From: an uncultured candidate division WWE3 bacterium
Lineage (GTDB): Bacteria > Patescibacteriota > WWE3 > UBA101185 > UBA10185
DNA length: 64,000 bases
Assembly (NCBI GenBank): GCA_903879985.1
Contig: CAIRNR010000007.1
Location: 649,925 to 713,924 of the forward strand
Direction: 5' to 3'
Shown piece after piece: positions 34,754 through 60,315 of the stretch. Under the pieces are notes generated by a model. It saw only the letters and a program-made list of their open reading frames with translations, was not told the origin of the DNA and did not search any database. A program made the position numbers and the translations under genes. Within the stretch, counting starts at the first letter, position 1. Every line of letters starts with the position of its first letter.

Positions 34754-35827
34754 ATGACTAAAGTATCACTTAACTCAAACATACAGGAAGTAATCTTAAA
34801 ATATTTGGAGTATTGCGAGATCGAAAAGAACCTTTCCCAAAATACTATCAAAATGTACTTCTTTTATTTAACAGATTTTTCCACTTGGTTGCAGGGTTAC
34901 ATAAATAAAGAAATTGTTACACTTGGTGACATTAATGATGAACTTGTAAAAAAATACAGATTGGATCTGAATCGTCGTATAAGTACAAAATCTAACTCGG
35001 AATACAAGCGCTCCACACAAAAAACATTTTTAGTAGCATTACGTGCGTTTCTAAAATACTTAGTTATTGAAGAAGATGCGTCTGTTATGTCGCCGGAGCA
35101 AATAATTTTAGGTAAATCAGAAGACCGTGTGCCAAAGTTTTTAAATGACGGACAATTAGAGAAATTGGTAGATGTTCAGGACTTAAGTAAAAGATCGGGT
35201 TTACGCGATCGTTCTATACTGGAAACCTTGTTTAGTACAGGGCTTCGTGTCAGCGAGCTTGTGCATTTGAACAGAGATGACATTAATTTAGATTCAGGTG
35301 AGTTTACTGTTATAGGTAAAGGAAGAAAGGCGCGCACGGTTTATTTATCTACAGGAGCTATTAATTGGATTAAGAAATATTTGGGCACACGTTCAGACCC
35401 ATTTAAGCCCTTATTCATTAGATATTCCGGTTGTCACATGGCTGAAAAAGATTATGACGGTAATTCTATAAGACTTACATCACGAAGCGTGGAACGACTG
35501 GTAAAAAAGTATGTTGGCAAAAGCGGTATCTCGGTTGATGCCACGCCTCACACACTTCGTCATACTTATGCAACAGGATTATTACGTGAAGGTGCTGATT
35601 TAAGAAGTGTTCAAGAGCTATTAGGCCACGCAAATGTTTCTACCACGCAGATTTATACTCATGTAACCAACACTCAGCTTCGTGAAGTACATAAGAAATT
35701 TCATAAAGATATTGATGTTAAGCGGAAAAATTACGACATTGTTCCGGAAGCAGATGGCCGTAATGTTGGTGATGATGGCAAGGATACCTTAGGATCTACT
35801 AGCGACGAAGTTTCCTCTTTGATATAA
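34754..35827 (+). CDS. xerC: tyrosine recombinase, XerC/XerD family
   Basis: N-terminal SAM-like 'EKNLSQNTIKMYFFYLTDFSTWL'. Catalytic 'GLRVSEL' (Arg), 'HTLRHTYAT' (H-x-x-R) and 'LLGHANVSTTQIYTHV' (His/Tyr). Confidence 0.75.
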   Translation: MTKVSLNSNIQEVILKYLEYCEIEKNLSQNTIKMYFFYLTDFSTWLQGYINKEIVTLGDINDELVKKYRLDLNRRISTKSNSEYKRSTQKTFLVALRAFLKYLVIEEDASVMSPEQIILGKSEDRVPKFLNDGQLEKLVDVQDLSKRSGLRDRSILETLFSTGLRVSELVHLNRDDINLDSGEFTVIGKGRKARTVYLSTGAINWIKKYLGTRSDPFKPLFIRYSGCHMAEKDYDGNSIRLTSRSVERLVKKYVGKSGISVDATPHTLRHTYATGLLREGADLRSVQELLGHANVSTTQIYTHVTNTQLREVHKKFHKDIDVKRKNYDIVPEADGRNVGDDGKDTLGSTSDEVSSLI

Positions 35828-36241: not shown

Positions 36242-36592
36242 TTATTTGGATTTGGTTGTATGTTTGCGCTGGAGTTTTTTATCCATATATGTCGTAACTC
36301 GTATCTTTACAACGCCCTCCAAAGATTTTTCCGGATCATCTGGCGGCCATCCTTCTTTGTTCAGAAATTGCACAATATATCCGGCGGTTGTTAACGTTTT
36401 TCCGATTTTACGCAAATAAAGTTCCGGGGTTGTAATCGGGAGTCTGATCACAGCTATTTCGATTTGTATTGTTGGAGTGCCTTGTAACACCGTTATTGGC
36501 GCATTTTCCAGCCTCTTTTGGATTATATCGAGCGCTTCCCTTATTCCGGACGATGCATTTTTGATTTCCCATAAATCCTTTGCAGGTAACAT
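36242..36592 (-). CDS. hypothetical protein (116 aa) downstream of rnhB
   Basis: A minus-strand GAGAGG RBS lies 6 nt before the ATG. Same strand and close spacing to rnhB. Confidence 0.4.
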   Translation of the reverse strand: MLPAKDLWEIKNASSGIREALDIIQKRLENAPITVLQGTPTIQIEIAVIRLPITTPELYLRKIGKTLTTAGYIVQFLNKEGWPPDDPEKSLEGVVKIRVTTYMDKKLQRKHTTKSK

Positions 36593-36653: not shown

Positions 36654-37316
36654 CTAAAGTAGCATTGATCTGATAGGTTCAAAGCTTTTGCGGTGGATTT
36701 CGCAAATGCCGTGAGCCTTAATAGCGTCCATATGTGCCTTAGTTCCGTAGCCTTTATGTTTATCAAAGCCGTATTCCGGGTATTTGTCGTGAAGTTCACA
36801 CATTTTTCTGTCTCTATAAACTTTAGCAATTATCGATGCCGCGGCAATGGTCATGCTTTTTGAGTCTCCTTTAGCCATAAACGACTGGTTGTCGTGGGTA
36901 ATTTTTTTGATTTCAAAGCCGTCTACTAAAACATGTTGAGGCTTAACTTTTAGGTTTGTCACAGCTTGGTAAAAAGCTTCTTGAGTTGTTTTTGAAATGC
37001 CCCATTCGTCCAATTGAGTTACAGGTATTTCAATAATAGAGTAACTGACAGCGTTTTCGATGATAAATTTAGACAATATTTCTCTATTTTTTTCGGTTAC
37101 TTTTTTGGAATCGTTGATTAGTTTGTATAGTCCGAAATTTTGATGTGGGACGTCGTTAAACGTAAATTCGGCGCTCAGCAGCTTTTCCAAGTCCAAAATA
37201 ACAGCTGCTGCCACAAACGGTCCAGCCAATGGTCCCCTACCCACTTCATCAACTCCTGCAATAAATTTTATGCCTCGTGCAAATAATTCTCTTTCATAAG
37301 ATAACAAATCATTCAT
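36654..37316 (-). CDS. rnhB: ribonuclease HII
   Basis: 'FIAGVDEVGRGPLAGPFVAAAVIL' matches the DEVGRG active-site motif. Confidence 0.85.
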   Translation of the reverse strand: MNDLLSYERELFARGIKFIAGVDEVGRGPLAGPFVAAAVILDLEKLLSAEFTFNDVPHQNFGLYKLINDSKKVTEKNREILSKFIIENAVSYSIIEIPVTQLDEWGISKTTQEAFYQAVTNLKVKPQHVLVDGFEIKKITHDNQSFMAKGDSKSMTIAAASIIAKVYRDRKMCELHDKYPEYGFDKHKGYGTKAHMDAIKAHGICEIHRKSFEPIRSMLL

Positions 37317-37348: not shown

Positions 37349-38320
37349 TTATTCAGCGTCTTTAGCAAAAAGGACTTTTGCCATCTTTGCTAATCTTCGG
37401 CGGCCTTTGTAGATTACAGCTCCGAATAGTGATAGTACTAGCAAAATTGCGCCTGCAGCTCTGTATGGAAACATAAAAAAAGATGTACTGCTGGTTAGCA
37501 TTTGGTTATTATCGCCGTAAACCATAGAAATGGTGGCTGTAAATTTACCAATGGCCCATGGTTGATCCCATGTTCCGTAAAGGTTTCGTGTAGCACTTGG
37601 TAAAATATTTTTTTGTGTAATTTCAACTGTTGCTACTTTTTGACCGAAAAAGTTTGTGATTGTAATTCCACCTGTTGGTTTAATATGGACGGTACTGTCA
37701 TTTTTGACTTGAGCTTCAAAACCAACTGGTCCGTATTCAAATAATTTTTTGGTTGACGTAAATGTGGAAATAGATGCAGTTTCGTTAACAGAACCTGCGA
37801 CTCGTAACAATACTAATGCTGCTACTTCCTGTGATAATGTTGCACCCGTTGCTTTCATCCCTTGTGGGGCTTTAGTTCGGAAAATTATTGCACCATAATA
37901 GCCGCCCGGCTCGGCATTTTGAGGAATATTTATTCTAAAACCAATTAATCTACTAGTTTTAGCTGTAATAGGCGCAACATCTTTGCTTTCTTCGATCCAT
38001 GTTGCTAGTGAGAAACTATTTTCTTCATCTGATAACCCTACAGCTCCTTCGTCGCCCTTTGCGGTAAAGTTCTTTTTATCCAGCTCTATACCTAAATCAG
38101 CGTCAGTGAGGTTGTCAACTCTAATAGTATTATTTAAGGTGTCGCCTGGATTACCTGTGAGTTCAAATACTGGTGGGGATATAGCAATACCTTGTGTGGT
38201 CTGCGCACTAACTGCTTTTCCACAAGCAGTTGTTGCGACAAGAACTAACAATGTAATGGTGAAAGCAGTTATTTTATTTACTGTTGCCGTTTTTCTCAGC
38301 ATTTGTGTCCATTCTAGCAT
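37349..38320 (-). CDS. secreted/anchored surface protein, paralog of 39432..40448 (N-terminal signal/lipobox-like, C-terminal TM anchor)
   Basis: 'NAEPGGYYGAIIFR' and 'IKPTGGITITN' are shared with the paralog. C-terminal TM plus basic tail '...KGRRRLAKMAKVLFAKDAE'. Resembles DUF916/DUF3324-type proteins of Firmicute WxL loci; this is a tentative call. Confidence 0.5.
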   Translation of the reverse strand: MLEWTQMLRKTATVNKITAFTITLLVLVATTACGKAVSAQTTQGIAISPPVFELTGNPGDTLNNTIRVDNLTDADLGIELDKKNFTAKGDEGAVGLSDEENSFSLATWIEESKDVAPITAKTSRLIGFRINIPQNAEPGGYYGAIIFRTKAPQGMKATGATLSQEVAALVLLRVAGSVNETASISTFTSTKKLFEYGPVGFEAQVKNDSTVHIKPTGGITITNFFGQKVATVEITQKNILPSATRNLYGTWDQPWAIGKFTATISMVYGDNNQMLTSSTSFFMFPYRAAGAILLVLSLFGAVIYKGRRRLAKMAKVLFAKDAE

Positions 38321-38331
38321 TACTTATTTCT

Positions 38332-39414
38332 TTAGTACATTGGGACTGCAGTGAGGATCACAGATGTGGTATATGAACCTGCTTTTGTAGTACCAGAGAT
38401 ACCTATTTGATATCCAATTCTAGTTACATCGCTAGAAACTGGTGCTATGCTGTGTGCTACTTCTACTCCCGTAGTCGTAAAGGCTGCCCATTTATTACTG
38501 TTAAACCTTGCTGCCGTTCCTGCTAATGATGTAGAGGAAGTTGTGTAACCAAAACCTTCGGTACCTGCCGCTGTAAATGCTGTAGGTGTGGCATTAGAAC
38601 CTGCAAAGTCAGCTATAGTGTTTGTACCACTTGTTAAAGCACCCGAATATCTTGTGTAAACTGTATAACCCGAACCTGCGTTTGTGACTACGGTCATATC
38701 ATGTGCTGCAATTGCATTAGCGCCTGATGTAACTGTACCAAATGGAATCGTAGTTGGAGTAGTTGTTACGGTTGTAGTAGCACTGTTGACAGTGGAACCC
38801 GAGGCAATTGCTGAAATTGTAAATGTAAGTGCAGGATCTACTGTTAGAGAAACTGACTGACCTGTTGTGTATTGGTAAGCTAATACAGTTGAATCTACAG
38901 GACTGGTGGCGCAGTCAGTGTTGTTGTATGTGTTGAACTTAACGAAATAAGTTGTTCCGGCTGTGGAAGCATTTGTAATACCACTTAATACAACTGTTCT
39001 TCCTGTGGCGCCTGCTGGTGTCTCACCAGATGCGAAAGTTATTTTAATGGTACCGTTTGTAGAACCTGATGCTGCCCAGCTACCTGGTGTAGGAATATAA
39101 GTTGAAGTACCAACTAAAGCAACTGAATTTGTGTTAATACCACTTGGTGCTGCAGAACCAGCTGCGGTTGTTGAAAAAACAAGTTGAATACATTTAATTG
39201 CTGATGTTGTGACGTTATCAAATGTGCCTGTATATGTAACATTTGCGGTTGAAGGTCGTGAATCAGTTAAATTGATTCCACCATTTGTAAGAACGGAAGC
39301 TTTTGCTACGATTGCATTATTTGCTAATAAAATAAATGCGGCTAACGATAAGACTAAATTTAAAACTACGAATCTTTTTATATTTTTATTTATTTTTTTA
39401 TACATGGCAGACAT
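38332..39414 (-). CDS. secreted Thr/Ser/Gly-rich surface protein with C-terminal module shared with the giant protein
   Basis: Signal peptide. The last ~90 aa, 'EGFGYTTSS...IGYQIGISGTTKAGSYTTSVILTAVPMY', are homologous to the C-terminus of 40420..45459. Confidence 0.5.
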   Translation of the reverse strand: MSAMYKKINKNIKRFVVLNLVLSLAAFILLANNAIVAKASVLTNGGINLTDSRPSTANVTYTGTFDNVTTSAIKCIQLVFSTTAAGSAAPSGINTNSVALVGTSTYIPTPGSWAASGSTNGTIKITFASGETPAGATGRTVVLSGITNASTAGTTYFVKFNTYNNTDCATSPVDSTVLAYQYTTGQSVSLTVDPALTFTISAIASGSTVNSATTTVTTTPTTIPFGTVTSGANAIAAHDMTVVTNAGSGYTVYTRYSGALTSGTNTIADFAGSNATPTAFTAAGTEGFGYTTSSTSLAGTAARFNSNKWAAFTTTGVEVAHSIAPVSSDVTRIGYQIGISGTTKAGSYTTSVILTAVPMY

Positions 39415-39431
39415 TTTCTTTTTTAAATCAA

Positions 39432-40448
39432 TTACTTTTGTTGTGCGTTATCCTTTTCAAAAAGGACAGCGACAGCTTTTCGGAACCTATCTTTTTTAAT
39501 TATGATAAAACGTATTAGTAAAGTCAATGGCAAGACTGAAAGCAAAAATGGGAAAAGAGGAAATACCCAAAAAATAATCTCTCTTTGAATTTTTATTTTG
39601 CTGTTCCCTGCTTCTAAATCAAGGTTAAGACGGTATTTTCCCGGAAACATTTTTTTAGTTATTAATGAAATTATTTCTGTCTTTTCAGTTTGAGGTAGAA
39701 CTATTTTTGAAGGAATTTGTTCGTTAAAAATTATTTTTCCCGTAATTAAGTTTGTGATGGTTACGTTTCCTGTCGGAATTATGTGAATATTTCCCGGATT
39801 TTGGAAGGTTACGTTCATTTCGTTTGGGCCGAAGCTCGTAAAATTACTTATTTGCACATTTGTTAGGTTTAATCTTTCGTTTATATCACCGGGGGCGGTT
39901 AAAAAAATCAAAACCCCTACCCTACTCGTTATGTAGGTTTTCTTTCCTTCGTCTGTTGGGTTTTCCGGAGTGACTGGTTGAAAAAAGATTGTACCGTAAT
40001 GGCCACCAGGCTCTGCATTTTCAGGCATATTAATTGTTACAGTAATCTTTTTTGATTCACCTGGGTTAATAATAAAGTCCGCAGGTTCCAGTTTAATCCA
40101 CGAAGACGCGTCGTACATGCTTCGGGCGTTTATAGGAATACTTTCGTCAGCGTAAAAGTTTTTAGCTGATGCCTTTATTGGTAAAGGAAATGGGTTAACG
40201 TTGTATACCAAAATCTCGGCGGTGTTAACTTTTTTTGGCACTAAATTCATTTCGATGATTGCGGGAGAAACTCCAAATGTGACTTGATCTTTTATGTCTT
40301 GGAGTTGCAAGGTTTGGGCGTTTGCTTTTGGCGTATGTGGCAATAGCAATAATACATATGTTGTTATGCCTAAAATTATTGCGACAACCATTGTTTTCTT
40401 ATTCAAAATATTTTTCATCTTAATAAGAAGGCGTGACCGTATAAACAA
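39432..40448 (-). CDS. secreted/anchored surface protein, paralog of 37349..38320
   Basis: 'NAEPGGHYGTIFFQ' and 'IIPTGNVTITN'. C-terminal TM plus tail '...KKDRFRKAVAVLFEKDNAQQK'. Confidence 0.5.
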   Translation of the reverse strand: MFIRSRLLIKMKNILNKKTMVVAIILGITTYVLLLLPHTPKANAQTLQLQDIKDQVTFGVSPAIIEMNLVPKKVNTAEILVYNVNPFPLPIKASAKNFYADESIPINARSMYDASSWIKLEPADFIINPGESKKITVTINMPENAEPGGHYGTIFFQPVTPENPTDEGKKTYITSRVGVLIFLTAPGDINERLNLTNVQISNFTSFGPNEMNVTFQNPGNIHIIPTGNVTITNLITGKIIFNEQIPSKIVLPQTEKTEIISLITKKMFPGKYRLNLDLEAGNSKIKIQREIIFWVFPLFPFLLSVLPLTLLIRFIIIKKDRFRKAVAVLFEKDNAQQK

Positions 40449-43400
40449 TTACAGTTGTGTATGCACCGGTCATTTGAATAGCGTCCGTTTTTACTTGGTA
40501 AGTGATTGTAAAGTTATCGGTTACGGGACTACCGGTTACACCTGTATCATGGTCGGCAACAATATCTCCAGGTGCTGTTGATGAGAAAGGTGCGTAACAT
40601 GCACCACTATTTCCTCCTGGGCATGTGGCACTATTAAACTTATTTGCTCCTTGAATACTTGTGTCCGAAGAATTATAACCGAATCCCCTATCCCCTGTTA
40701 GCCAACCGTCGGGAGCTGCATAAGTTCCTCCATTAAAATCTGGAATTGTATAAATTGGATTTGCTGAAGATGTAAGTGGAGTTGTTTCGTACGCTTTTAT
40801 TACATAGCCGTTGTAGGCGTTGGTGGTTGTAGTTAAGGTTGTGGTTTTAGTATCGTTGAAGCTGTTTGTAGTACCAAGGTTTGAAAAAGTTACAGTTGTT
40901 GGTGACACTGTAAAAGTTAAGGATGGCGCTACAAGTTGGCCATTAGAAGATACTATTGCCGAATTTCCTGCGTTATCTACGGCACGCACGTTAAAGAAAT
41001 ACATCTGTGCGGTTCTAAGTGTAAGACTGGTTGCCGTAACCGACGTGTTTGTTGAGTTTGATGTCCAAGTTAATATATCTGTGCCGCCTGCGGATGATCC
41101 AATGGAGTAATCATAGCGTGATAGTCCAGAAACTGTAGCAACAAAGCCGTCCCAGTTGGCTGATAAACTAGATAGTGAACCATCGTTAAATGCTGCGTCT
41201 ATACCTGCGGCGGTGCCATCATAAACTGTGCCTCCGGTTGGAGCTGTGGAGTCTATTCCAAAGTCGCTGGCACTTTCGGCGTTACCCCCGTAGGCTACCC
41301 ACGAAGAATAAAGTCCTCCAGAATCCTTGGTGCGCGCTTGCCAGTGGTACTCCGTAGCGTCTGTAAGTCCACTTAGCGTTTGGTCTAGGCTTACGCCCGA
41401 ACCTGCAGATGCCGTACCAACAGCATTACAGCTTGTTTCAACATTTGTAAATGGCGTGCCCAAAGGTTGTGCTTCTATACATAGGTAAAGTGTGTCGGGA
41501 TTGTCTGGATCAGAACCTGATGCAGTAAATTTCATAGACGTCGTGTTGTTCCAGCTGCCTGTGGAAATTACCGAGTTAGTTGTGGTTTCCTGAATAAGTG
41601 TTGTTGGCGCGTTTGGTGCTTGGTTTGCTTTTACGAGCGTGGTGGTGCCGGCTAATTCAACGGATGCCGCAGGTTGTGCGTGTCCGTAGTCCAACAGTAT
41701 ATCGGTTGTTGAGTTCATATCGCTTAATTTTATAGTCTCATTGTTTGCAGTATTATTTGTGATATCTAAAACTGTATATACACATGTAGGAGATGAGTTT
41801 ACGGGCATATTTCCCGTTAATGTTGTTTTCTCCGTACCTAAGTATCCAGGATCTCCAAATGTTCCTGGTGTTGAATTAAACAATGTTTCATTTCCGTTGT
41901 AGTTACATGGCGAATCTTGATCATAATAAATATTTACATTAGCCAGCCCTGAACCGGCAACCACAGTTCCTGTGTCAGTTAACTTAATTCTAGTAACGTA
42001 TGCAGATCCTTGATCTAGCGTATATATAAAAGGAGCTCCTATATATGTATTGGTTGAAGGTACGTTTATAGTCGCGACCTGTGATCCTGAAGTTGTGACA
42101 TTGAGTTGTGCGTTATAACGTAAGTAGCGCATGGACATCAAAGCAAAATCAATATCACTAACATTAGGTGCTGATGTAAGTGTACTTATGGATGTTCTTA
42201 CACGCATGTTGCTTATTCCATCAATGGTATCAACATATACTGCAGGTGTTGTTTGAGGTCTGGCGAGTATCCAAGTATCAAACCATGCATACGCGGCTGT
42301 TGCATTTGTATCTGTACCTGGTGTGTTCGCCCATCCTGATGTTCCTTGTACGCCAGAGAAGTCTCTAAGTTGTACATCTTGTGTCATGGCAGTGTTGTTA
42401 GAATGATATTTAATTGCATAGTGCATCGCTGTAATAGACCCGTTCGATGCTACGTTCATTGGAAATGATAAGTTAGAAGATACCGCGTATTCTCCATTTA
42501 CAGTATCGTCATCATTATCAAGCGCATAAAAAGTTGCAGGATATTCTACAACAGCAGTCCTTTGCCATGTTGATGTAGTGGGGTTTACTGTTTTACCCTC
42601 CTTTGTATCTCTGGTGTTACTGCAGTCCGTAGTGGTTCCAGTTCCCCATGAAATTTCGCATTGCGCAGTATTTGTATTTGTCGAACCAGCTATCATATAA
42701 ATACGGTCAAAAACTAGGTTATATTTAGTTCCCGGTCCATTCGTTAAAAATCTTACCGTTACATCTCCTTGTGGGCTAATATAGTCACTAATGTTAAAAC
42801 CACCTATCGTTGTGCCGTTGAATGCGTATGCATACTCAACGTCAGCTGTAGTACCAGTAAAATTAGTACTTAACTGTGTCCAACTTGACGTGGTGTAGTT
42901 TCTTAAATAAACTCCGTATGTTAATGCTACATTAGAAACGTTCATCTCCGGAATAACTACAAAAGTATTCATACCCGGATACGTCTTTACATTGTTAAAG
43001 GTGAACTGCACATCTACCGGCTGTGAACTTGCCGGCATTGGAATTGTTAATCTGTTGTTATCGGAGCCATTTACTCCTGTGGACACGCCTCCAACTAAAT
43101 CAGAGATATAACCTGTCGGTGTACTTCCTGCTGCTATGGTCATGTCTCCAACCTCATAAATTGGATCTACACCAACCTCCACTTGTACGTTATCTAATCT
43201 ATGTTGTGTCGTGGAAGCTACTGTTGAATAAACTCTTAAAAGTAATGATCCTCCTATAACAAAATTAATTAATGGCGTTCGAACAACTGTTCCTGGTACC
43301 GATGTACGTGTTGAAAAATAGCCATCATATACTTCGTAAAGTCTTGCAGTAACCGTTGTATTAACATAATCAACTTTGCGTGGTTGCAATGTTCTCCATC

Positions 43401-45459
43401 CTCCTCCGGTACAGTCAGAATCTGCAGGGGCGTCTACACCTGTGGGGTCTTGCCAGTCGCATATTTGATGCGTGTAAGCGTCTCCAGTTGTAATATCTGA
43501 ATCGGTAATACTAATTAGCAACTTATTAATACCCTGTGGTATATCATAGGTATTTTGATACTGTGTATCTATCCCGTCTACATAAATTAATTTATTTAGT
43601 CCTCCAGGATTTGATCTTGCTGATATCCAATAGTTAGTATCTGCACCAAGTAGCGCTTTCCAGGATCCCGTATTAGTGTTGTCCGTTGCTACCTCAGATC
43701 CGGTGCGTAATATTCCGTTGGTAGGTTGAAAGCCCCTTCTTACGGTGACTTTATTAGGTTCTTCCACCCAACGAATACTCATCATGGCAAAAGCCCAGCT
43801 TCGATTGTTTGTCGCGGTAACGTTTGTACTGGCAGATGTTCTTAAACGCATGTTCATCAGGTTATTACCCGTATCTATAGAATCTTCCGGTGATGTTGTG
43901 ATTTCAGCGTTTACCCAGCTGTCTGTCCAGCCATATACTGTCGCTGAGGCGTTTGTATCTGTTGCAGGAGTACTTACCCAGCCCGATGTTCCTGATAATC
44001 CATAATAGTCACGAATTTGAGGATCAACTGTTTCTGTTGAGATATTAGATCTGTATTTTGCCGCATAAAGTATACCTGTAACGGATATCATGTGGCCAAG
44101 CCCTGTTGTTCTAATGGGAAATGAAATATTTTGAGATGCTGCGTATTCTCCATTATTTGCATCGTCATCATTATCAAGTGAGTAATATGAGCTGGGGTAT
44201 TCTAGTGTGGAACCTGCTTGCCATGTTGACACTGAAGGTGCTACTGTTTTACCCTCTTTTACAGTTGTTGTATTATAGCAATCTGTTGCAGTTCCAGTTC
44301 CCCATGAAATTTCGCATTTCGACGTGTCGGCGTTTACAGATCCCATCATCATATAAATGCGGTCAAATGAAATAGTATACTTTGAGGCGGGCGCATTTGT
44401 TAGAAATCGTATTGATACATTTCCGCTGGCACTTATATAGTCTGAAAGACTAAACCCTGGTATAGCGGTGTCATTAAATGCGTACACATACTCAACATCA
44501 GCAGCAGTTACCGTAAAGTTTGTTCCTCCCAATTGTGTCCACGTAGAGTTTGAATAATTTCTTATATATACGCTGTATGTAAGTGCAACATTTGACACCT
44601 TAATTTCCGGAGAAACTAATATCGTGTTCATTCCCGGGTATGTCTCTACGCCATTAAATGTAAATTGAATGTCTGCTGCATTTCCTGCTGAGGGCATAGG
44701 AATTGTTAATGAGTTATTATCTGATGCGTTTAAGTTGGTCGAAACAGCGCCAACCAAGTCAGAAATATAACCAGTTGGTGTACTACCTGCAGCGATATTA
44801 TAACCCCCTACTTCGTAATTTGGGTCAATGGCAACTTCCAACTGTACCCAGTCAAGTTTATGTAAGGTTGTTGATGCCACAGTGGAATAAACTCTAATCA
44901 TTACTCTGTTGTTTTGTGAAGCGTCTATAAAGTTAGTTAGTGGTGTGCTGACTACTGTTCCCGGTACGGAGGTACGTGTTGAGAAATAACCATCATATAT
45001 TTCGTAAGTTCTGGTTACATCTGCAGTACTTGTATAGTCAACTCTACGTGGTTGTAATGTTCTCCATCCTCCTGTGGTGCAATCGGTGTCGGCTACTGCG
45101 TCCACTCCAGTTGAATCAGACCAGTCGCATATCTGATGTGTAAATGCGTCTGCAGTGGTGGTGTTACTATCATCGATGGTCAATAGAAGTTTGTTAGCTC
45201 CCATTAACGCAACGCCATCAATATAAATAATTTTATTTAATCCTCCAGGATTTGACCTTGCTGTTATCCAATAATTTGAATCGTTTCCTAATGTACCTTT
45301 CCAGTCGCCTGTATTATCGGAACCTGTGGCAATAGGTGTACCCATTCTAAGTGCCCCACCAGTTGGGGGGAATACTGAAGCCGCATAAGTCTTTCCAAAA
45401 GAAAAAGTAATCCAGACCAAACACATGATAATAAAAGATAATATTTTAAATTTACTCAT
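40420..45459 (-). CDS. giant secreted surface protein (1679 aa) with tandem ~545-aa internal duplication, FN3-like region and shared C-terminal module
   Basis: Signal peptide 'MSKFKILSFIIMCLVWITFSFGKTYAAS'. Repeats cover aa 31-578 and 579-1119 at about 60% identity. The 'TEYHWQARTKDSGGLYSSW' segment is FN3-like. The C-terminus is '...TGAYTTVIVYTVTPSY'. Confidence 0.6.
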   Translation of the reverse strand: MSKFKILSFIIMCLVWITFSFGKTYAASVFPPTGGALRMGTPIATGSDNTGDWKGTLGNDSNYWITARSNPGGLNKIIYIDGVALMGANKLLLTIDDSNTTTADAFTHQICDWSDSTGVDAVADTDCTTGGWRTLQPRRVDYTSTADVTRTYEIYDGYFSTRTSVPGTVVSTPLTNFIDASQNNRVMIRVYSTVASTTLHKLDWVQLEVAIDPNYEVGGYNIAAGSTPTGYISDLVGAVSTNLNASDNNSLTIPMPSAGNAADIQFTFNGVETYPGMNTILVSPEIKVSNVALTYSVYIRNYSNSTWTQLGGTNFTVTAADVEYVYAFNDTAIPGFSLSDYISASGNVSIRFLTNAPASKYTISFDRIYMMMGSVNADTSKCEISWGTGTATDCYNTTTVKEGKTVAPSVSTWQAGSTLEYPSSYYSLDNDDDANNGEYAASQNISFPIRTTGLGHMISVTGILYAAKYRSNISTETVDPQIRDYYGLSGTSGWVSTPATDTNASATVYGWTDSWVNAEITTSPEDSIDTGNNLMNMRLRTSASTNVTATNNRSWAFAMMSIRWVEEPNKVTVRRGFQPTNGILRTGSEVATDNTNTGSWKALLGADTNYWISARSNPGGLNKLIYVDGIDTQYQNTYDIPQGINKLLISITDSDITTGDAYTHQICDWQDPTGVDAPADSDCTGGGWRTLQPRKVDYVNTTVTARLYEVYDGYFSTRTSVPGTVVRTPLINFVIGGSLLLRVYSTVASTTQHRLDNVQVEVGVDPIYEVGDMTIAAGSTPTGYISDLVGGVSTGVNGSDNNRLTIPMPASSQPVDVQFTFNNVKTYPGMNTFVVIPEMNVSNVALTYGVYLRNYTTSSWTQLSTNFTGTTADVEYAYAFNGTTIGGFNISDYISPQGDVTVRFLTNGPGTKYNLVFDRIYMIAGSTNTNTAQCEISWGTGTTTDCSNTRDTKEGKTVNPTTSTWQRTAVVEYPATFYALDNDDDTVNGEYAVSSNLSFPMNVASNGSITAMHYAIKYHSNNTAMTQDVQLRDFSGVQGTSGWANTPGTDTNATAAYAWFDTWILARPQTTPAVYVDTIDGISNMRVRTSISTLTSAPNVSDIDFALMSMRYLRYNAQLNVTTSGSQVATINVPSTNTYIGAPFIYTLDQGSAYVTRIKLTDTGTVVAGSGLANVNIYYDQDSPCNYNGNETLFNSTPGTFGDPGYLGTEKTTLTGNMPVNSSPTCVYTVLDITNNTANNETIKLSDMNSTTDILLDYGHAQPAASVELAGTTTLVKANQAPNAPTTLIQETTTNSVISTGSWNNTTSMKFTASGSDPDNPDTLYLCIEAQPLGTPFTNVETSCNAVGTASAGSGVSLDQTLSGLTDATEYHWQARTKDSGGLYSSWVAYGGNAESASDFGIDSTAPTGGTVYDGTAAGIDAAFNDGSLSSLSANWDGFVATVSGLSRYDYSIGSSAGGTDILTWTSNSTNTSVTATSLTLRTAQMYFFNVRAVDNAGNSAIVSSNGQLVAPSLTFTVSPTTVTFSNLGTTNSFNDTKTTTLTTTTNAYNGYVIKAYETTPLTSSANPIYTIPDFNGGTYAAPDGWLTGDRGFGYNSSDTSIQGANKFNSATCPGGNSGACYAPFSSTAPGDIVADHDTGVTGSPVTDNFTITYQVKTDAIQMTGAYTTVIVYTVTPSY
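42103..43725 (-). repeat. intragenic tandem repeat unit 2 of the giant surface protein (approximate bounds)
   Basis: aa 579-1119 'PTNGILRTGS...NPGGLNKLIYVDG...DNDDDTVNGEYA...'. Confidence 0.6.
43726..45369 (-). repeat. intragenic tandem repeat unit 1 of the giant surface protein (approximate bounds)
   Basis: aa 31-578 'PPTGGALRMG...NPGGLNKIIYIDG...DNDDDANNGEYA...' aligns along its whole length to unit 2. Confidence 0.6.
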
Positions 45460-46129
45460 TTGTAATACTCAATTTTCCGTCAATAAATTGAACGTCGTAT
45501 ATTACGTTTTTCATTTCGATTTTTGTTGGTACATCGCTGTTCTCCATTGATTGTGAGAATGTTGTGTTATTTACAAGATCTACTCCGATAAGTGACTTAT
45601 TGTCATTTGAAGGGAAAATTAGTGTGTCGCTGTTTAATGCTTCAATTGGCGAGTTATCTGGTAAGTCTAAAACAGTTTGCATTGCCCACGTAAGTTCCGA
45701 ATTCTTTTCCCAAAGCTGGGCTTTATCTAAACCTTTTTTTATTATGCACGGGTCGTTGTTGGCTACAACAAAAACGCATTGTGTAATATCAAAGTTAGGA
45801 TCTTGGCTGTTATTTGAAATCACAGTGCTATCAATAACTCTTGTTGGTGCATCAATTGTTAGGTTGTCTAAGGCTGAGCGATCTATTATTTCGGGGGCGG
45901 CTGTTGCTGTAGTTTCTGATGTTTGTTGTACGTCTGTTGCTGAAAGCACGTCGCCAGCTGTGGGATTAGCTGAAGAAGTAGACTCACTTGTTTCCTGCGT
46001 GGCGTTTTCTTCTTGGGCGTAAACAATACCAATACCTGCAACAACAAACACAACACTCACAAGTATTAAAAAAGCAGGTATATAAATTTTAATTCTACTC
46101 ATTGTTTTCTTAGTATTAGTTTCTCCCAC
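45452..46129 (-). CDS. signal-anchored secreted hypothetical protein (225 aa)
   Basis: An N-terminal TM helix is followed by Thr/Ser-rich and Asn-rich segments. It overlaps both neighbours. Confidence 0.4.
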   Translation of the reverse strand: MGETNTKKTMSRIKIYIPAFLILVSVVFVVAGIGIVYAQEENATQETSESTSSANPTAGDVLSATDVQQTSETTATAAPEIIDRSALDNLTIDAPTRVIDSTVISNNSQDPNFDITQCVFVVANNDPCIIKKGLDKAQLWEKNSELTWAMQTVLDLPDNSPIEALNSDTLIFPSNDNKSLIGVDLVNNTTFSQSMENSDVPTKIEMKNVIYDVQFIDGKLSITNE

Positions 46130-47169
46130 ACATTTAAAATCATTGTATCTATTTGAACAAGTTTATCTATTAGTCTATCTATAATATCTTTCTTTGGCTG
46201 GGGTGTCTCAGCATTAAACATAAAATCTTTGGTGAACTGTTTAGTTGTTTCTGCGCCCAATATATTATTTGAATCATGGGTTACGTCGTAAAATTCCATG
46301 CGAGTTGTTGAATTTGGTGAGGCTAGTTGGCTTTCGGTTTCTCCCCTCTTTTGCATAACACCCATAACTGCAGCATTGCTTGACTCACTTACTGGTGTTT
46401 CAGAAATAAAGTATGCAATTGTGGCAAAATCTTTAAGAACATTTGTGCCCTTACCATCGTTGGCTAGTACTGCTGAGGTTGGCATGTATTTAACTTTTGT
46501 TATTCCAGGGGCTTTGGCTTTAAAATAAATTGTGGCAAAATCACCTGCAGCATCAACATATCCCGGATTTGGTACGCCGCCTATTAGTTGGATATACCCT
46601 GCCTCATTGTCTACGTCGTTTTGAATAAAAATTGTGGCAAAAGAATTGTCTGTTACAACTTTTACAACTTCCAATGTTTTAGGGTCAAAGCTTATATCGG
46701 TTTTAACAACATTAACAGGAACTTTAATTTGAGTAATTTTTACATCCAGAGGAAATATTGCGCCCAAAGATATATCTTGTTTTGCGGGTAGTACAAAGAA
46801 AGCTGTCTTTTCTGCGGGTACCTGTGCGTTTTTAAATATTGTAACTATCTTGATTTCCAAAAAAACAAACCCGATAGAAAAGGCTGACATCACTAGGATA
46901 AGTAAAGCATTCCCGAATGCTGAGCGCAGTGTCGCCGGATTGCTAATTACTTCTTTTTCGCGAACGCGTCCGCAAACAAAACATTTGTTCCCTATTTTTG
47001 TTGTGCGGCACATCAAACACATTTCTTGTTCTGGGAAAATCAGCATCCAAATTGGATAAGCAAATGCAATGATTGGACCAAATACTGCCATTGCATGGAT
47101 AATCACCCACGATACAAGTGCTAATATCAAAAGTCGTATTAATTTAAAAGCGTCATCAATAAATTTCAT
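46099..47169 (-). CDS. membrane protein with zinc ribbon between two TM helices and a beta-rich extracytoplasmic domain
   Basis: 'CLMCRTTKIGNKCFVCG' is a CxxC-x9-CxxC ribbon flanked by hydrophobic helices. The C-terminal ~250 aa are beta-rich ('DFATIYFKAKAPGITKVKY'). Confidence 0.45.
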   Translation of the reverse strand: MKFIDDAFKLIRLLILALVSWVIIHAMAVFGPIIAFAYPIWMLIFPEQEMCLMCRTTKIGNKCFVCGRVREKEVISNPATLRSAFGNALLILVMSAFSIGFVFLEIKIVTIFKNAQVPAEKTAFFVLPAKQDISLGAIFPLDVKITQIKVPVNVVKTDISFDPKTLEVVKVVTDNSFATIFIQNDVDNEAGYIQLIGGVPNPGYVDAAGDFATIYFKAKAPGITKVKYMPTSAVLANDGKGTNVLKDFATIAYFISETPVSESSNAAVMGVMQKRGETESQLASPNSTTRMEFYDVTHDSNNILGAETTKQFTKDFMFNAETPQPKKDIIDRLIDKLVQIDTMILNVWEKLILRKQ

Positions 47170-48224
47170 CTATTTATATAGTATAGGGTAATCGAAAGGT
47201 CAATCAAGTTACATACGCCATCATTGTTGATATCGCAGTCTTTTGTTTCTCCGGCTCTCCACCCTGTTACCCAAGTTTTTACGACTTCGTATACTTCTGT
47301 GATTTCAATTTTATGGTCACCGTTTCTGTCGAGGTGTGGAAATAATTTTACAAGTGGATTGATATATGGCGTTGGTGTTGGTGCTTCCTGTGCAATTTGC
47401 TCGGCGGTTAGTGCTTCAGCTGTTGTCGGCGTAGGCGTTGGATTATCGGGGACTGTTTCTTCCTCGTCGTGATGAGGCGTTGGAGTCGGCGTAGGAGATG
47501 GTAATGGATTATTTATTTTTAAATACACTGCCCTACTCGTTTCGCTGTTGTATGTTTGGTATTCAGTTATCGCATTTATTGTATTAGTAGCCAAATAACC
47601 GGGAATAGATTTTGTGTCTATAGCTAAACTCCATGTTCCGTCGCTTCCCGAAGGTATTGCCCCAAAAATTGTGCCGTTGATAAAAACTGTAACGTTAGCA
47701 TTAGGTACGGTGGCACCACTGACGCTTGCGCTGTCACCATAAGTAGTTTCTGCTAAATCAATTCTTATGGTTGGTGGTAATACAATGTTGTTGATTGTTT
47801 CATCCAAACCAGGTTGTGTGGCTATGCTGTAATTAATTGTGGGAGTTGTTAAAAAGTTTGGGTCTGTTTCATACATACTTATATATTGAATGTCGCTGTC
47901 AAAGCCCGAAAATGATTTTGAAAAATTTCCATCAGCATCCGTAGTTGTAGTCCCGATAGTGCTTCCATTTTGCACAAAAGTAACAACGGAAAGTGGTGCG
48001 CCTTTTCCGTTAAATATGATATTTGAAGAACCAACTCTTACTGTTAAATTTATTTGTGTTTCGGCTCTTGCTCTTCCCAGTGTGAAAGCTAATAGCAGCA
48101 CTACAATTGCAACCACTGGTATAACATAAAAGCTTCTGTGGGCCATTGCACTAATCTTATAATTTTTAGTTGGATTATTCCAGATTCTCTGCGATTTCAA
48201 ACTCTTCTTTTGCGAGCATTGCAA
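47166..48224 (-). CDS. secreted protein with Ig-like/CarboxypepD_reg-like repeats, Pro/Thr linker and C-terminal dockerin-like Ca-binding repeats
   Basis: Signal anchor. 'DADGNFS' and 'SDGTWS' beta-sandwich repeats. Linker 'PSPTPTPTP'. C-terminal duplicated 'DRNGDHKIEITE' and 'DINNDGVCNLIDL' follow the D-x-N-x-D-G pattern. Confidence 0.5.
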   Translation of the reverse strand: MQCSQKKSLKSQRIWNNPTKNYKISAMAHRSFYVIPVVAIVVLLLAFTLGRARAETQINLTVRVGSSNIIFNGKGAPLSVVTFVQNGSTIGTTTTDADGNFSKSFSGFDSDIQYISMYETDPNFLTTPTINYSIATQPGLDETINNIVLPPTIRIDLAETTYGDSASVSGATVPNANVTVFINGTIFGAIPSGSDGTWSLAIDTKSIPGYLATNTINAITEYQTYNSETSRAVYLKINNPLPSPTPTPTPHHDEEETVPDNPTPTPTTAEALTAEQIAQEAPTPTPYINPLVKLFPHLDRNGDHKIEITEVYEVVKTWVTGWRAGETKDCDINNDGVCNLIDLSITLYYINR

Positions 48225-50754
48225 TTGAAGTTATCTTGTCACCGGGATCTAAACGCATAAGTCTTACACCTTGTGTGGCACGACCTATTGTTGGTATTTG
48301 TTTTGTAGAAAGTCTTAAAATTTTTCCGTCTTTTGTAGCTATTAATACATCGGCATCTAATCCGTGTTCCAAAGCTCTTGCGGAAATAAGGTGTCCTGTT
48401 TTTTCTGTGACTTTGTAAGTAAGAATTCCCGAGCCTGCGCGATTTTGAACTTTGTATTCGGTGGTAGGTGTTTTTTTGCCATATCCTAGGTCGGAAACTG
48501 TGAATAGATCAATATTTGTAATCCTACTTGGAATAATTACTGTACCAACAACGTAGTCTTCTCCTTTTGATAATTTTATTCCGGTTACACCTGCGGCTGC
48601 TCTTCCCATGGCGCGAACGTCGTCTTCACTAAATCTTATGGATTGTCCCTGACTTGTTGTTAATAGAATTGCGTCTTTACCTGATGTTAAACCGGCAAAT
48701 ACCAAACTATCTTTATCTTCAAGTCTTAAGGCCAAAATGCCTGATGATCTAATATTAGAAAATTCTTCTAGTGGTGTCTTTTTAACAACACCTTTATGTG
48801 TAACAAAGAATACGAATCCGTTGGCTTCATCCATTTCGGTCATACTCAAGGTTAAAAATGCTTCAACTTTTTCTTCTTGTCCCATGCTCAAAAAGTTAAC
48901 AAGTGGTGTTCCTTTTGCAGTTCTGGAAGATTCTGGAATATCCCAAATACGCATTTTGTAAACTTTACCTTTGTTAGTAAAGAACAATGCCCAGTCGTGT
49001 GTTGAACAAATCTTTATTGTGTTTACGCGGTCTTCGTCGCGGAGTTGTTGTCCTGTTACGCCTTTTCCTCCTCTACCCTGTTTGCGATATGTATCTTCTT
49101 TAAGTCTTTTAATGTAGCCACTTTCGGAGATTGTAACGATTCCTGTTTCATCAACAATTAAATCTTCGTCACTTAGTTCGCCGATTTTTGCTTTAATAAC
49201 CTTAGTTTTTCTTGTATCACCAAATTTAGTTTTCAAATCGTTTAGTTCTTGTTGAACTGTTTCAATAATCTTTACTGGAGAGGCTAATAAGGTCTCATAA
49301 CCATGTATTGTTTCTTGGATTTGCTTAAGTTCATCTTCTATCTTTTTGCGTTCAAGTGCTGCAAGTCGGCGTAATTGCATATCTAAGATTGCTTGAGCTT
49401 GTAGGTCTGACAATTTGAATCTTGTCATTAATCCTGATTTAGCTGCGTCGGCATCTTTGCTTGCACGGATTAACGCAATTACTTCATCTAAGAAATCTAA
49501 AGCAATCTTAAGACCCTGTAGTATATGCTCGCGTTCTTTGGCACGTCTGAGTAGGTATATAGTTCTTTTAACTACTACTTGTTGTCTGTGCTTGATAAAC
49601 TCTTCCAAAATTCTTTTTAATGGGAAAAGCAAAGGTTCGTTATCGAGTAGTGCTACAAAGTTTCCGTTAAAGGTTGTTTGTAATTGAGTATATTTATATA
49701 GCTGATTTTGGATTTTCTTTACAACGGCGTCGCGTTTAAGTTCAATAACGATTCTAATACCTTCTTTGTTGGATTCATCGCGTAAGTCTGAAATGCCTTC
49801 GATCTTTTTGTCTTTAACTAAGTCAGCGATTTTGGATATAAGCGTTGATTTGTTGACCATGTATGGAATTTCGGTGACAACTATTTTAATCTTTTCAGCT
49901 TTTCCTTCTTCCACTTCGATTTTTGCGCGTTGTACTACCCTACCCTTACCTGTTGCGTACATCTGCATGATTTCTTTTTGATCGTAAATTGTACAACCGG
50001 TTGGAAAATCAGGACCTTTTATATATTGCATTAAATCTTCTACTGTAGCCGAGGATGAAAAATCTATTTTAGCTATTTGTGATTCATCAGTTTTGTCTGG
50101 GCCTGTTCCTATAGTCTCTGCCTTCTCAATGAGTAAATTTATTCCATCTATGATTTCACCTAAATTTTGTGGTGGAATGTTAGTAGCCATACCAACTGCG
50201 ATACCTGTGGTACCGTTTAGTAATAGATTTGGTAATAATGATGGTAAATAAGCTGGTTCGTAGTTTTGAAGATCGTTCATTATAAAATCAACGGTCTCTT
50301 TATCAATATCTCCATATAATTCTTCTGAAATTTTTTGGAGTTTACACTCAGTGTATCTCATTGCTGCTGGCGGATCTCCGTCGACACTACCAAAGTTTCC
50401 TTGTGGCCAAATGAGTGGATATCTTAAATTAAAGTCTTGTCCCATACGTACCAAAGCGTCGTAAATGGAAGTATCTCCGTGTGGGTGATACTTTTTCATG
50501 ACTTCTCCGATAATGGCCGCGCATTTTTGAAACTTACCACTGGCTACAACATTTTGATCTTGCATTGCGTATACAACACGTCGTTGAACAGGTTTAAGTC
50601 CATCTCGTACGTCGGGTAAAGCTCTTGAGACAATAACACTCATTGCGTAATCTAGGTACGCGCTTTGCATTTCATCACCAATGTCTGTTTGGAATATTCC
50701 TTGTCTATCGTCGAACTCTTCATTTTTTGCTAGAGCGTTAATTCTTTCTGACAT
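48175..50754 (-). CDS. gyrA: DNA gyrase subunit A
   Basis: 'AAMRYTECKLQKISEEL' lies near the active-site Tyr. C-terminal beta-pinwheel repeats are present. Length is 859 aa. Confidence 0.9.
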   Translation of the reverse strand: MSERINALAKNEEFDDRQGIFQTDIGDEMQSAYLDYAMSVIVSRALPDVRDGLKPVQRRVVYAMQDQNVVASGKFQKCAAIIGEVMKKYHPHGDTSIYDALVRMGQDFNLRYPLIWPQGNFGSVDGDPPAAMRYTECKLQKISEELYGDIDKETVDFIMNDLQNYEPAYLPSLLPNLLLNGTTGIAVGMATNIPPQNLGEIIDGINLLIEKAETIGTGPDKTDESQIAKIDFSSSATVEDLMQYIKGPDFPTGCTIYDQKEIMQMYATGKGRVVQRAKIEVEEGKAEKIKIVVTEIPYMVNKSTLISKIADLVKDKKIEGISDLRDESNKEGIRIVIELKRDAVVKKIQNQLYKYTQLQTTFNGNFVALLDNEPLLFPLKRILEEFIKHRQQVVVKRTIYLLRRAKEREHILQGLKIALDFLDEVIALIRASKDADAAKSGLMTRFKLSDLQAQAILDMQLRRLAALERKKIEDELKQIQETIHGYETLLASPVKIIETVQQELNDLKTKFGDTRKTKVIKAKIGELSDEDLIVDETGIVTISESGYIKRLKEDTYRKQGRGGKGVTGQQLRDEDRVNTIKICSTHDWALFFTNKGKVYKMRIWDIPESSRTAKGTPLVNFLSMGQEEKVEAFLTLSMTEMDEANGFVFFVTHKGVVKKTPLEEFSNIRSSGILALRLEDKDSLVFAGLTSGKDAILLTTSQGQSIRFSEDDVRAMGRAAAGVTGIKLSKGEDYVVGTVIIPSRITNIDLFTVSDLGYGKKTPTTEYKVQNRAGSGILTYKVTEKTGHLISARALEHGLDADVLIATKDGKILRLSTKQIPTIGRATQGVRLMRLDPGDKITSIAMLAKEEFEIAENLE

Positions 50755-57926: not shown

Positions 57927-57995
57927 CGTTTTGACGCGAAGCCGTTGTGCATTTCGGCGAGCGTGTGTTGGAAAAGCTAACAAGCACAAATTTAT

Positions 57996-59072: not shown

Positions 59073-59081
59073 TATTTAAAA

Positions 59082-60284: not shown

Positions 60285-60315
60285 GTTTTATATCCAATGT
60301 TAATATTGTTTCAAC

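Follow-up and report, generated by a model that had tools for sequence, protein, structure and literature searches.

The window analysed here is a stretch of 64,000 nucleotides (nt) from an uncultured candidate division WWE3 bacterium, a member of the candidate phyla radiation (CPR). On its minus strand, between gyrA and rnhB, lie seven consecutive genes, which are numbered g1 to g7 in the order of transcription (Table 1). An open reading frame (ORF) scan reproduced exactly the seven genes and the lengths given in a preliminary description of this DNA, where they were taken for an array of secreted surface proteins. The locus is likely to be a divergent cluster for a Pam-type pilus of the CPR, that is, a chaperone-assisted filament built without an usher by donor-strand exchange. 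The roles of the individual components are put forward with less confidence than the identity of the system.

Table 1. Genes of the locus (lengths from the ORF scan), their parts and the two flanking genes
Feature	Positions	Strand	Length or residues	Description
gyrA	48175-50754	minus		upstream flank, outside the system; Pfam DNA_topoisoIV and DNA_gyraseA_C on the identical public gene
g1	47166-48224	minus	352 aa	secreted immunoglobulin (Ig)-repeat protein: signal peptide, mature N-terminal β-strand, two Big_6 domains, Pro/Thr linker, dockerin-like end
g1 dockerin-like module	47169-47345	minus	residues ~294-352	two Asp/Asn-rich loops, DRNGDHKIEITE and DINNDGVCNLIDL
g2	46099-47169	minus	356 aa	polytopic membrane protein: about three N-terminal hydrophobic segments, CxxC...CxxC between the second and third, then an extracellular cohesin-like domain
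g2 cohesin-like domain	46453-46770	minus	residues 134-239	
g3	45452-46129	minus	225 aa	signal anchor, acidic Ser/Thr-rich stretch, C-terminal region of ~110 aa with two Cys
g4	40420-45459	minus	1679 aa	secreted protein: signal peptide, lineage-variable head, conserved stalk, C-terminal Pam-type pilin module; proposed tip adhesin
g4 head	42118-45372	minus	residues 30-566 and 577-1114	tandem duplication of a ~540-aa unit
g4 stalk	40945-41628	minus	residues ~1278-1505	kept in 19/19 g4-type loci
g4 C-terminal Pam-type pilin module	40423-40944	minus	residues 1506-1679	ends in ...GAYTTVIVYTVTPSY
g5	39432-40448	minus	338 aa	membrane-anchored PapD-like/WxLIP-type chaperone: signal peptide, two β-sandwich domains, C-terminal transmembrane (TM) helix and basic tail
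g6	38332-39414	minus	360 aa	major pilin candidate: signal peptide, N-terminal β-sandwich (40-181), linker (182-195, GQSVSLTVDP), C-terminal Pam-type domain (196-360)
g7	37349-38320	minus	323 aa	second membrane-anchored WxLIP/PapD-like chaperone, paralogue of g5; C-terminal hydrophobic segment and basic tail
rnhB (RNase HII)	36654-37316	minus		downstream flank, outside the system; Pfam RNase_HII E 2.6e-37

The genes are closely packed. With the longest ORFs, the junctions from gyrA/g1 through g7/rnhB are -50, -4, -31, -8, -29, +17, +11 and +32 nt. In the public annotation of an identical metagenomic contig, g1 (326 aa), g4 (1668 aa), g5 (319 aa) and g6 (357 aa) start later; the gaps then come to about +11 to +32 nt, and two true overlaps are left, of -4 nt at g1/g2 and -31 nt at g2/g3. 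This means that about half of the overlaps reported earlier are artefacts of start choice, several of them arising because the longest ORF was chosen, and that the packing is tight under both sets of starts. The likely start of g1 is M27, at nt 48146. A Kyte-Doolittle hydrophobicity scan, which is not a dedicated signal-peptide predictor, found an N-terminal hydrophobic segment in all seven proteins, in agreement with the signal peptides or anchors first assigned to them. A C-terminal segment is also present in g5 and g7, and about three segments are present in g2.

The Pam pilus is known from Candidatus Mycosynbacter amalyticus, where it comprises PamA, PamB, PamE, PamT, PamC, PamD and PamR (Troman et al., bioRxiv 10.64898/2026.03.03.709456; NCBIfam NF058578, NF058579 and NF058581). 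Cryo-electron microscopy (cryo-EM) of the filaments identified two pilins, PamA and PamB, in filaments of the donor-strand-exchange type (bioRxiv 10.64898/2026.03.03.709456). The C-terminal domain of g6 matches the NCBIfam model CPR_Pam_pilin_C (NF058581) over positions 3-148 of 148 (E 9.8e-8, 32.2 bits), and that of g4, taken alone as the last 168 aa, matches it over positions 5-148 of 148 (E 9.1e-7, 29.1 bits). The two domains are also related to each other (g6 192-360 against g4 1510-1679: 31% identity, E 1e-9, BLASTP), so that the C-terminal module said to be shared with the giant protein is real. Among 37 sampled members of the g6 family, 35 match CPR_Pam_pilin_C at E <=0.01, with a best E of 3.6e-13. 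In three bridge loci (L025, L027 and L031), the g6 homologues score 97-124 bits, above the model cutoff of 55, and lie directly beside g7-type genes. When compared by hhalign with the Pam pilin domains above the cutoff, the C-terminal domain of the g6 family reached 100% (E 4.6e-52) and that of the g4 family 98.4% (E 4.9e-15). On this profile evidence, g6 and the last 170 aa of g4 belong to the superfamily of the Pam pilin C-terminal domain, and g6 seems to represent a distinct Pam pilin sub-family, more divergent than the seed of the model. The suggestion that the system is undescribed does not hold, since the shared module is a domain with NCBIfam models and with a cryo-EM description of 2026; no evidence for convergence, the other possibility raised at that time, was found.

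The AlphaFold2 (AF2) monomer model of g6 has a pLDDT (predicted local distance difference test) of 90, with eight to nine strands in residues 45-181 and eight strands in residues 196-358. Residues 182-195 form an unstructured linker of lower confidence. In this model, the layout of N-terminal β-sandwich, linker and C-terminal β domain matches PamA and PamB as they are described in the publication. Cys75 and Cys168, both within the N-terminal domain, are invariant across the g6 family, and paired cysteines with disulfide potential are reported in PamA and PamB (Troman et al., bioRxiv 10.64898/2026.03.03.709456). The most conserved motif of the family, AGTEGFGYTT, is located in the C-terminal domain. 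Ser and Thr together account for 30% of g6, which agrees with the Thr/Ser-rich protein noted before. The g6 family has 307 matches, all of them without annotation, and the named sources are CPR. Sequence searches of the PDB with g6 and with the g6-family profile gave nothing meaningful, and on g6 Pfam gave no more than sub-threshold hints.

The giant protein g4 carries the pilin module at the end of a much longer chain. The two repeats of its head show 60% identity over 546 columns in a self-comparison, which fits the earlier view of g4 as a giant repeat protein. The head had no Pfam match and no PDB sequence match, and it was found in only one of 19 related loci. Over these 19 loci, conservation is confined to residues ~1278-1679 (50-64% identity), and the head of ~1200 aa is lineage-specific; it is presumed to be the binding region. 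The stalk gave weak Ig-like Pfam matches only and has nearly invariant columns in the alignment of the giant members; it probably consists of two Ig/FN3-like domains. The g4 family has the linker motif GQxV...PxLxF in common with g6, in a version that is consistently four residues shorter. The same design of a giant head and a C-terminal Pam pilin domain is found in L027, where the domain scores 113.7 bits, above the cutoff.

An exhaustive profile search with the two C-terminal domains of the window found 1091 representative clusters (50% identity) at E <=1e-3 and 482 at E <=1e-10. In the 150 best representatives of the 1091, the module was at the extreme C-terminus without exception, and 82 of these 150 were at least 1000 aa long. 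The heads of the giant relatives contain ConA-like lectin/Laminin_G_3, CBM, DUF2341, RCC1 and other propeller, BNR and H-lectin domains. One giant relative in the alignment of giant proteins carries a Peptidase_M23 domain (E 2.6e-24) in addition to the C-terminal pilin module. Judged from its domains, this protein would put a peptidoglycan hydrolase at the tip of a pilus, which would be notable for an epibiont attacking host cell walls. Another giant relative, P0286, starts with transposase helix-turn-helix domains and is probably a gene-call fusion.

Along their whole length, g5 and g7 share 28% identity (E 9e-30). The preliminary description had seen paralogous anchored proteins here, and for these two genes this is correct; the set as a whole seems better read as the parts of a polymerising pilus, namely pilin, tip adhesin, chaperones and anchor. 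g7 matches Pfam WxLIP_PGBD with E 8.8e-4, the best member of the g5/g7 family matches it with E 8.8e-10, and relatives of the g7-type proteins in Saccharimonadia carry PF06030. The g5/g7 family was also compared with the DUF916-DUF3324 proteins of Firmicutes, taken from eight annotated WxL clusters from plasmids (L033-L040). This gave an hhalign probability of 98.3% with E 1.6e-14, spanning both domains. Both g5 and g7 have the WxLIP layout, in which DUF916/PGBD and DUF3324/HBD domains are followed by a C-terminal TM helix. At the level of sequence profiles, homology of g5 and g7 to the WxLIP proteins (DUF916/DUF3324) of Firmicutes is thereby demonstrated, and what had been called a loose likeness to DUF916/DUF3324 loci is true homology for these two genes.

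In the Pam operon, PamC and PamD are FimC/PapD-like chaperones with a C-terminal membrane helix, PamT is a single-domain tip pilin, and PamR is an RbmA-like anchor with a TM helix. g5 and g7 are membrane-anchored FimC/PapD-like chaperones like PamC and PamD. NCBIfam has no model matching the chaperones. A profile built on the g7-type proteins of genuine Pam loci, and likewise a 1.1-Mb contig, led to Saccharimonadia relatives only, with no named PamC or PamD. The g7 type is the core chaperone, present in all Pam-type loci examined. The g5 type follows the g4 type: both are present in 18 loci and neither in 12, with one exception. This co-occurrence suggests that g5 is a dedicated chaperone of the giant g4, and g7 is proposed to be the chaperone of the pilin g6. 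It should be mentioned that the signal region of g7 ends in ...LVATTAC-GKA, with Cys33 encoded at 38222-38224 on the minus strand; g5 has no Cys. This residue could belong to a non-canonical lipobox, in which case g7 would be anchored by a lipid at its N-terminus and also by its C-terminal TM helix. An additional g7-type (WxLIP-like) gene is found in L012 (17579-18493, minus strand), on the opposite strand and about 5 kb off the main cassette, and suggests that further satellite copies of the chaperone occur. The Pam preprint makes no mention of WxL or DUF916, and no paper linking the Pam and WxL systems was found in the literature searched.

The WxL clusters encode a small WxL protein, a large WxL protein and a DUF916-DUF3324 WxLIP (Siezen 2006; Hassan and Williamson 2022/2023; PDB 9i1y and 9i25). 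They resemble the present locus in that a short and a very long protein share a domain that is always C-terminal and are encoded beside a WxLIP, which is homologous to g5 and g7 in both domains and, like them, combines a signal peptide with two Ig domains and a TM helix at the C-terminus. According to the WxL papers, the two motifs of the WxL domain are adjacent strands, which form a buried platform under a loosely tethered N-terminal strand, and in the AF2 model of the WxLIP paper a strand of WxLIP fills the gap of the WxL domain. By analogy, this published picture looks like donor-strand complementation; in both systems, the prediction is that a partner lends the strand missing from a β-sandwich. 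The last strands are similar as well (YTTTLTWxL..P in WxL, YTTTVIxTATP here). On the other hand, two WxLIP-like genes are present here instead of one, the small LPXTG protein is missing, and the organism belongs to the CPR and not to Lactobacillales or Listeria. The binding of WxL proteins to peptidoglycan is taken to be non-covalent, and filaments of them are unreported. Plasmids of Enterococcus, Lactiplantibacillus, Lactococcus, Levilactobacillus and Listeria commonly carry WxL clusters, and a WxLIP fragment was matched in 75 plasmid records. One large WxL protein (L038, 6899-11914) has 1671 aa, which is near the size of g4.

The Pam C-terminal domain was compared with an alignment of 13 WxL-domain sequences. 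The hhalign probability did not exceed 2.6%, whether the Pam profile was narrow or broad and whether the alignment was local, relaxed or global. At 21.4, the score was about double the values of the reversed (11.8) and column-shuffled (7.8-11.6) controls. In addition, the relaxed alignment was colinear: GYTV fell on the first WxL motif (GWxL), and YTTTVIxT fell on the second (YTTTLTWxL). A motif search of the C-terminal domains of g6 and g4 found no W-x-L motif, as had been stated before, and 37 members of the g6 family gave no match to Pfam WxL at E <=1. Homology of the Pam C-terminal and WxL domains is not claimed from these values, since hhalign stays at or below 2.6% and the score and colinear motifs are suggestive but not demonstrative.

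These comparisons bear on a different reading, in which the locus encodes a non-filamentous surface complex of the WxL type, as has been proposed for the WxL clusters of Firmicutes. In such a complex, g5 and g7 would hold g6 and g4 one-to-one at the cell surface via the shared C-terminal domain, and binding domains would be displayed without polymerisation. The WxLIP homology of g5 and g7 would fit this, as would the parallel in architecture, with one always-C-terminal domain shared by a small and a large protein beside a WxLIP, the published AF2 model with a WxLIP strand in the WxL gap, and the hhalign score of twice the controls with its colinear motifs. Nevertheless, a complex of this kind seems unlikely: the closest characterised relatives of the g6/g4 module are pilins seen as cryo-EM filaments, g6 has the two-domain-plus-linker layout of PamA and PamB, and related loci have two or three tandem pilin copies, which is typical of fibres. 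Moreover, a W-x-L motif and a Pfam WxL match are lacking, and the profile-profile similarity of the subunits, with an hhalign probability of only 2.6%, is not significant.

A wider possibility is that Pam pili and the WxL/WxLIP clusters of Firmicutes are two branches of one ancient chaperone-assisted system of monoderm bacteria, with the subunit domains homologous too. We put this forward tentatively, as an idea somewhat easier to doubt than to accept. If it were so, the GYxV and VIxT strands would stand in for the two W-x-L motifs, the WxL proteins would be handled, and perhaps polymerised, via donor-strand complementation, and the TM helix of WxLIP would sit in the membrane of the bacterium itself.

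The remaining genes, g1 to g3, lie upstream of g4. g1 matches Pfam Big_6 above the cutoff (E 1.8e-8) and NCBIfam Ca_tandemer below the cutoff (E 1.5e-7). The β-strand right after its signal peptide is kept in every member of the g1 family, and g1 homologues immediately follow the g7-type gene in 18 loci. The C-terminal module of g1 matches Pfam Dockerin_1 with E 0.0038 and 17.8 bits, under the cutoff of 22.9 bits; in the g1 family, several members match Dockerin_1 or EF-hand models, three of them Dockerin_1. g2 matches Pfam Cohesin with E 6e-4 and 20.4 bits, under the cutoff of 24.1 bits, and Cohesin is matched by eight of ten g2-type members scanned (best E 3.3e-8). The search for cohesin and dockerin suggested in the preliminary description was thus positive at the level of the families. 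g2 also contains a CxxC-(8)-CxxC pair (Cys 51, 54, 63 and 66; 46975-47019, minus strand), which is kept in L005, L006 and L023, is partial or absent in L004, L008 and L015, and looks like a small zinc ribbon on the cytoplasmic side.

The two types vary together. g2 adjoins g1 in nine loci; it is adjacent in all eight cases in which the g1-type protein has a dockerin-like end, and absent in all eight in which the g1-type protein ends in a TM helix and a basic tail. In two loci, the two types are joined in one ORF (L011, 12078-13763; L032, 1223-2794) consisting of Ig repeats, a dockerin-like module, a TM segment and a cohesin-like domain. Together, this distribution and the two one-ORF loci make a good comparative case that g1 is anchored in the membrane through g2. 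The fused genes support a functional link between g1 and g2 and raise the possibility of intermolecular cohesin-dockerin oligomers. g1 is proposed to be the base or anchor subunit and the counterpart of PamR, and g2 the membrane receptor for the dockerin of g1.

A cohesin-like β-sandwich in a membrane protein, a neighbour ending in two Asp/Asn-rich loops and the strict co-occurrence of the two recall the cohesin-dockerin pairs of cellulosomes. Such pairs might organise surface proteins that bind or degrade carbohydrates into a glycan-harvesting assembly. The ConA-like lectin, CBM, BNR and H-lectin domains in giant relatives would suit this, and the title of a 2006 paper on WxL clusters, the 'Csc' proposal for Lactobacillus plantarum, proposes a part in carbohydrate utilisation. 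We consider such an assembly very improbable. The locus has a single cohesin and a single dockerin, both under their Pfam cutoffs in the window, and no glycoside hydrolase or other enzyme; the core of the cassette is a set of pilin and chaperones. In addition, the dockerin of g1 is interchangeable with a simple TM anchor elsewhere, which speaks for anchoring over scaffolding: the pair appears to replace the simple TM anchor of a pilus-associated protein.

g3 had no match in Pfam or NCBIfam and no homologue in 30 related CPR loci at E 1e-8. By these searches, it is an orphan outside the conserved cassette.

No LPXTG-like motif was found in g1 to g7 and no sortase motif in the window, the pilin motif of sortase-dependent pili was likewise missing, and none of the seven proteins matched an usher family in Pfam. 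A pilus of the Gram-positive type assembled by sortase, or a set of covalently wall-anchored adhesins like the MSCRAMMs (microbial surface components recognizing adhesive matrix molecules), would have a point in its favour in the sortase gene near one related locus (L003). It is nonetheless scarcely credible here, as g6 and g4 end in a β-strand and not in a sorting signal. Both the sortase/LPXTG and the usher hypotheses were rejected for lack of a sorting signal, a sortase or an usher match.

The order of g4-type, g5-type, g6 (one to three tandem copies), g7-type, g1-type and often g2-type genes recurs in 29 genome loci, and the ordered gene set is present in at least 20 independent CPR genomes. 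This recurrence, which answers the call for a synteny check in related genomes, means that the arrangement is not due to chance. In other genomes the g1-type and g2-type genes lie downstream of g7, whereas here g1-g2-g3 are upstream of g4; the cassette has therefore been rearranged in this genome. Its flanks differ elsewhere too (L003 and other loci). The named sources of the homologues are nearly all Patescibacteria, Saccharibacteria, Saccharimonadia, Dojkabacteria, WWE3, Woesebacteria and Berkelbacteria, and the closest named relatives are metagenome-assembled genomes of Dojkabacteria, WWE3, Woesebacteria and unclassified Patescibacteria. Judging from these searches, the family is abundant in the CPR and so far specific to it, contrary to the remark that such genes would be unexpected in this lineage. 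Four short contigs are labelled as non-CPR (Pseudomonadales, Gammaproteobacteria and Acidimicrobiia; L008, L013, L028/L029 and L030) and are probably mis-binned CPR DNA.

The present cluster and the published Pam cluster are both restricted to the CPR, export all their parts by Sec, and have their genes clustered in one direction with no usher, sortase or ATPase among them. In both, the pilin consists of an N-terminal β-sandwich, a linker and a C-terminal truncated-Ig domain, and there are two membrane-anchored FimC/PapD-like chaperones with a C-terminal TM helix. The differences are found in the other parts. There is one pilin gene here instead of PamA, PamB and PamE; in place of PamT and PamR there are the 1679-aa protein with its C-terminal pilin module and the g1/g2 pair; and an extra type of chaperone (g5) is coupled to the giant protein. 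From this comparison, g1/g2 and g4 are proposed to be functional substitutes for PamR and PamT, respectively. The immediate flanks are gyrA and rnhB, whereas the preprint reports a neighbourhood with ATP synthase, CorB and MFS (major facilitator superfamily) genes.

The cluster also has the chaperone fold and follows part of the logic of the chaperone-usher pili (Pap, Fim, Csu and CFA/I). The two-domain tip adhesin with a C-terminal pilin domain, as in FimH and PapG, has its proposed counterpart in g4, and donor-strand complementation followed by exchange is presumed here. However, there is no outer membrane and no usher, and the chaperones are tethered to the membrane. The donor strand would be the inter-domain linker and not an N-terminal extension, the pilin has an extra N-terminal domain, and sequence similarity to the subunits of Pap or Fim is lacking.

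On these grounds, the Pam-type pilus might be assembled as follows. All components would be exported by Sec, and g7 and g5 would stay tethered to the cytoplasmic membrane by the C-terminal helix. Each would donate a strand that caps the incomplete C-terminal Ig-like domain of its client, as PapD and FimC do and as WxLIP may do towards WxL; g7 probably serves the pilin g6, and g5 the giant g4. g4 would begin the filament as a FimH/PapG-like tip adhesin, with the variable 1200-aa head as the end that would bind the target, and its C-terminal pilin module would accept the linker strand of the first g6. The g6 subunits would then join head-to-tail, the inter-domain linker of each being inserted into the C-terminal domain of the preceding subunit. 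g1 probably closes the fibre and holds it at the membrane: its conserved N-terminal strand could fill the groove of the last pilin, and its dockerin-like tail would plug into the cohesin-like domain of g2, in substitution for the membrane-anchored PamR. An apparatus for adhesion or host attachment, as had been suspected, is the right functional class.

Several points weigh against this assignment. Both g6 and the C-terminal domain of g4 score under the curated NCBIfam cutoff of 55 bits. The window proteins gave no match at E <=1 to NF058578 and NF058579, the models for PamR and PamT, which do find relatives in L017, L025, L027 and L031, including a PamR-like gene in L017. The link to Pam runs through an NCBIfam model and the bridge loci, and not through the sequences or structures of PamA-E, PamR and PamT of M. 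amalyticus, which were absent from the copy of the PDB searched. The linker is reported to be the most conserved segment of PamA and PamB; this was rejected for g6, where its conservation is 0.77 against 0.74-0.75 for the domains. Since g4 retains part of the linker motif, its position at the tip is plausible but unproven. The filament, the co-transcription and the cohesin-dockerin binding are predictions from the genes, and the Pam study itself is a preprint with an assembly model based on AlphaFold (bioRxiv 10.64898/2026.03.03.709456).

As for transcription, no terminator-like site on the minus strand was found in any intergenic gap from gyrA through rnhB. Promoter-like sites numbered 33, against 46.8 expected after shuffling, and terminator-like sites 17, against 14.4; neither is counted as above chance, and these counts therefore say nothing firm on operon structure. 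Within the 3' end of g5, and about 85 nt ahead of where g6 starts, lies a sigma-70-like site (39499-39527, minus strand; TTGACT, 17 nt, CATAAT; 10/12 matches). This site might act as an internal promoter to raise the expression of the major pilin g6. No DNA tandem repeats were found in the locus. No RNA family was detected in the 64-kb window besides one tRNA, and this tRNA-Leu(CAA) at 22990-23076 (plus strand) is the sole RNA gene detected there.

Upstream, the locus is immediately flanked by gyrA, an H+-pyrophosphatase and gyrB, and downstream by rnhB and an integrase. The pyrophosphatase (50893-52917, minus strand, between gyrB and gyrA) is a membrane-bound, H+-translocating enzyme that matches the H+-PPase of plants (PDB 4a01 and 6afy) with E 3e-144. 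Neighbours of pam operons that are related to ATP or to the proton motive force are emphasised in the Pam preprint (bioRxiv 10.64898/2026.03.03.709456), and the pyrophosphatase beside gyrA may be a coincidence or a parallel to these. Just past rnhB are a 116-aa ORF without annotation (36242-36592, minus strand) and a tyrosine recombinase (34754-35827, plus strand; Phage_integrase E 1.5e-41). Farther off, an 859-aa ATPase (27480-30059, plus strand), with matches to DUF87, TrwB_AAD_bind and DUF8128 on the identical public gene, probably belongs to a type IV secretion or conjugation-like machinery of the patescibacterial kind. The operon for type IV pili mentioned in the preliminary description is real: it is located about 8 kb away at 56163-61706 on the plus strand and encodes PilB, PilT, PilC, a pilin and a prepilin peptidase.

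The class of system described here is already published. What is added is the widespread architecture with giant adhesins, the exchange of a cohesin-dockerin anchor for a TM anchor and, above all, the homology between the Pam-type chaperones and WxLIP. The bacteria of the CPR are obligate epibionts, and little is known of the ways in which they reach a host and keep hold of it. The present results mean that the Pam pilus has a widespread second architecture, in which a giant adhesin carries the pilin module. Hypervariable heads on a conserved stalk and pilin module are natural candidates for determinants of host specificity and offer a handle for the prediction of host range. The cohesin-dockerin pair, in exchange for a simple TM anchor, represents an unusual use outside cellulosomes. 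The homology of the Pam-type chaperones with WxLIP ties the pili of the CPR to the clinically relevant WxL loci of Enterococcus, Listeria and lactobacilli, and suggests a testable mechanism for these loci, namely strand complementation by a membrane-tethered PapD-like chaperone. If the unity of the Pam and WxL systems were true, the virulence and colonisation loci of enterococci, listeriae and lactobacilli would be reinterpreted, and pilus assembly of the chaperone type would gain a deep root outside Gram-negative bacteria.

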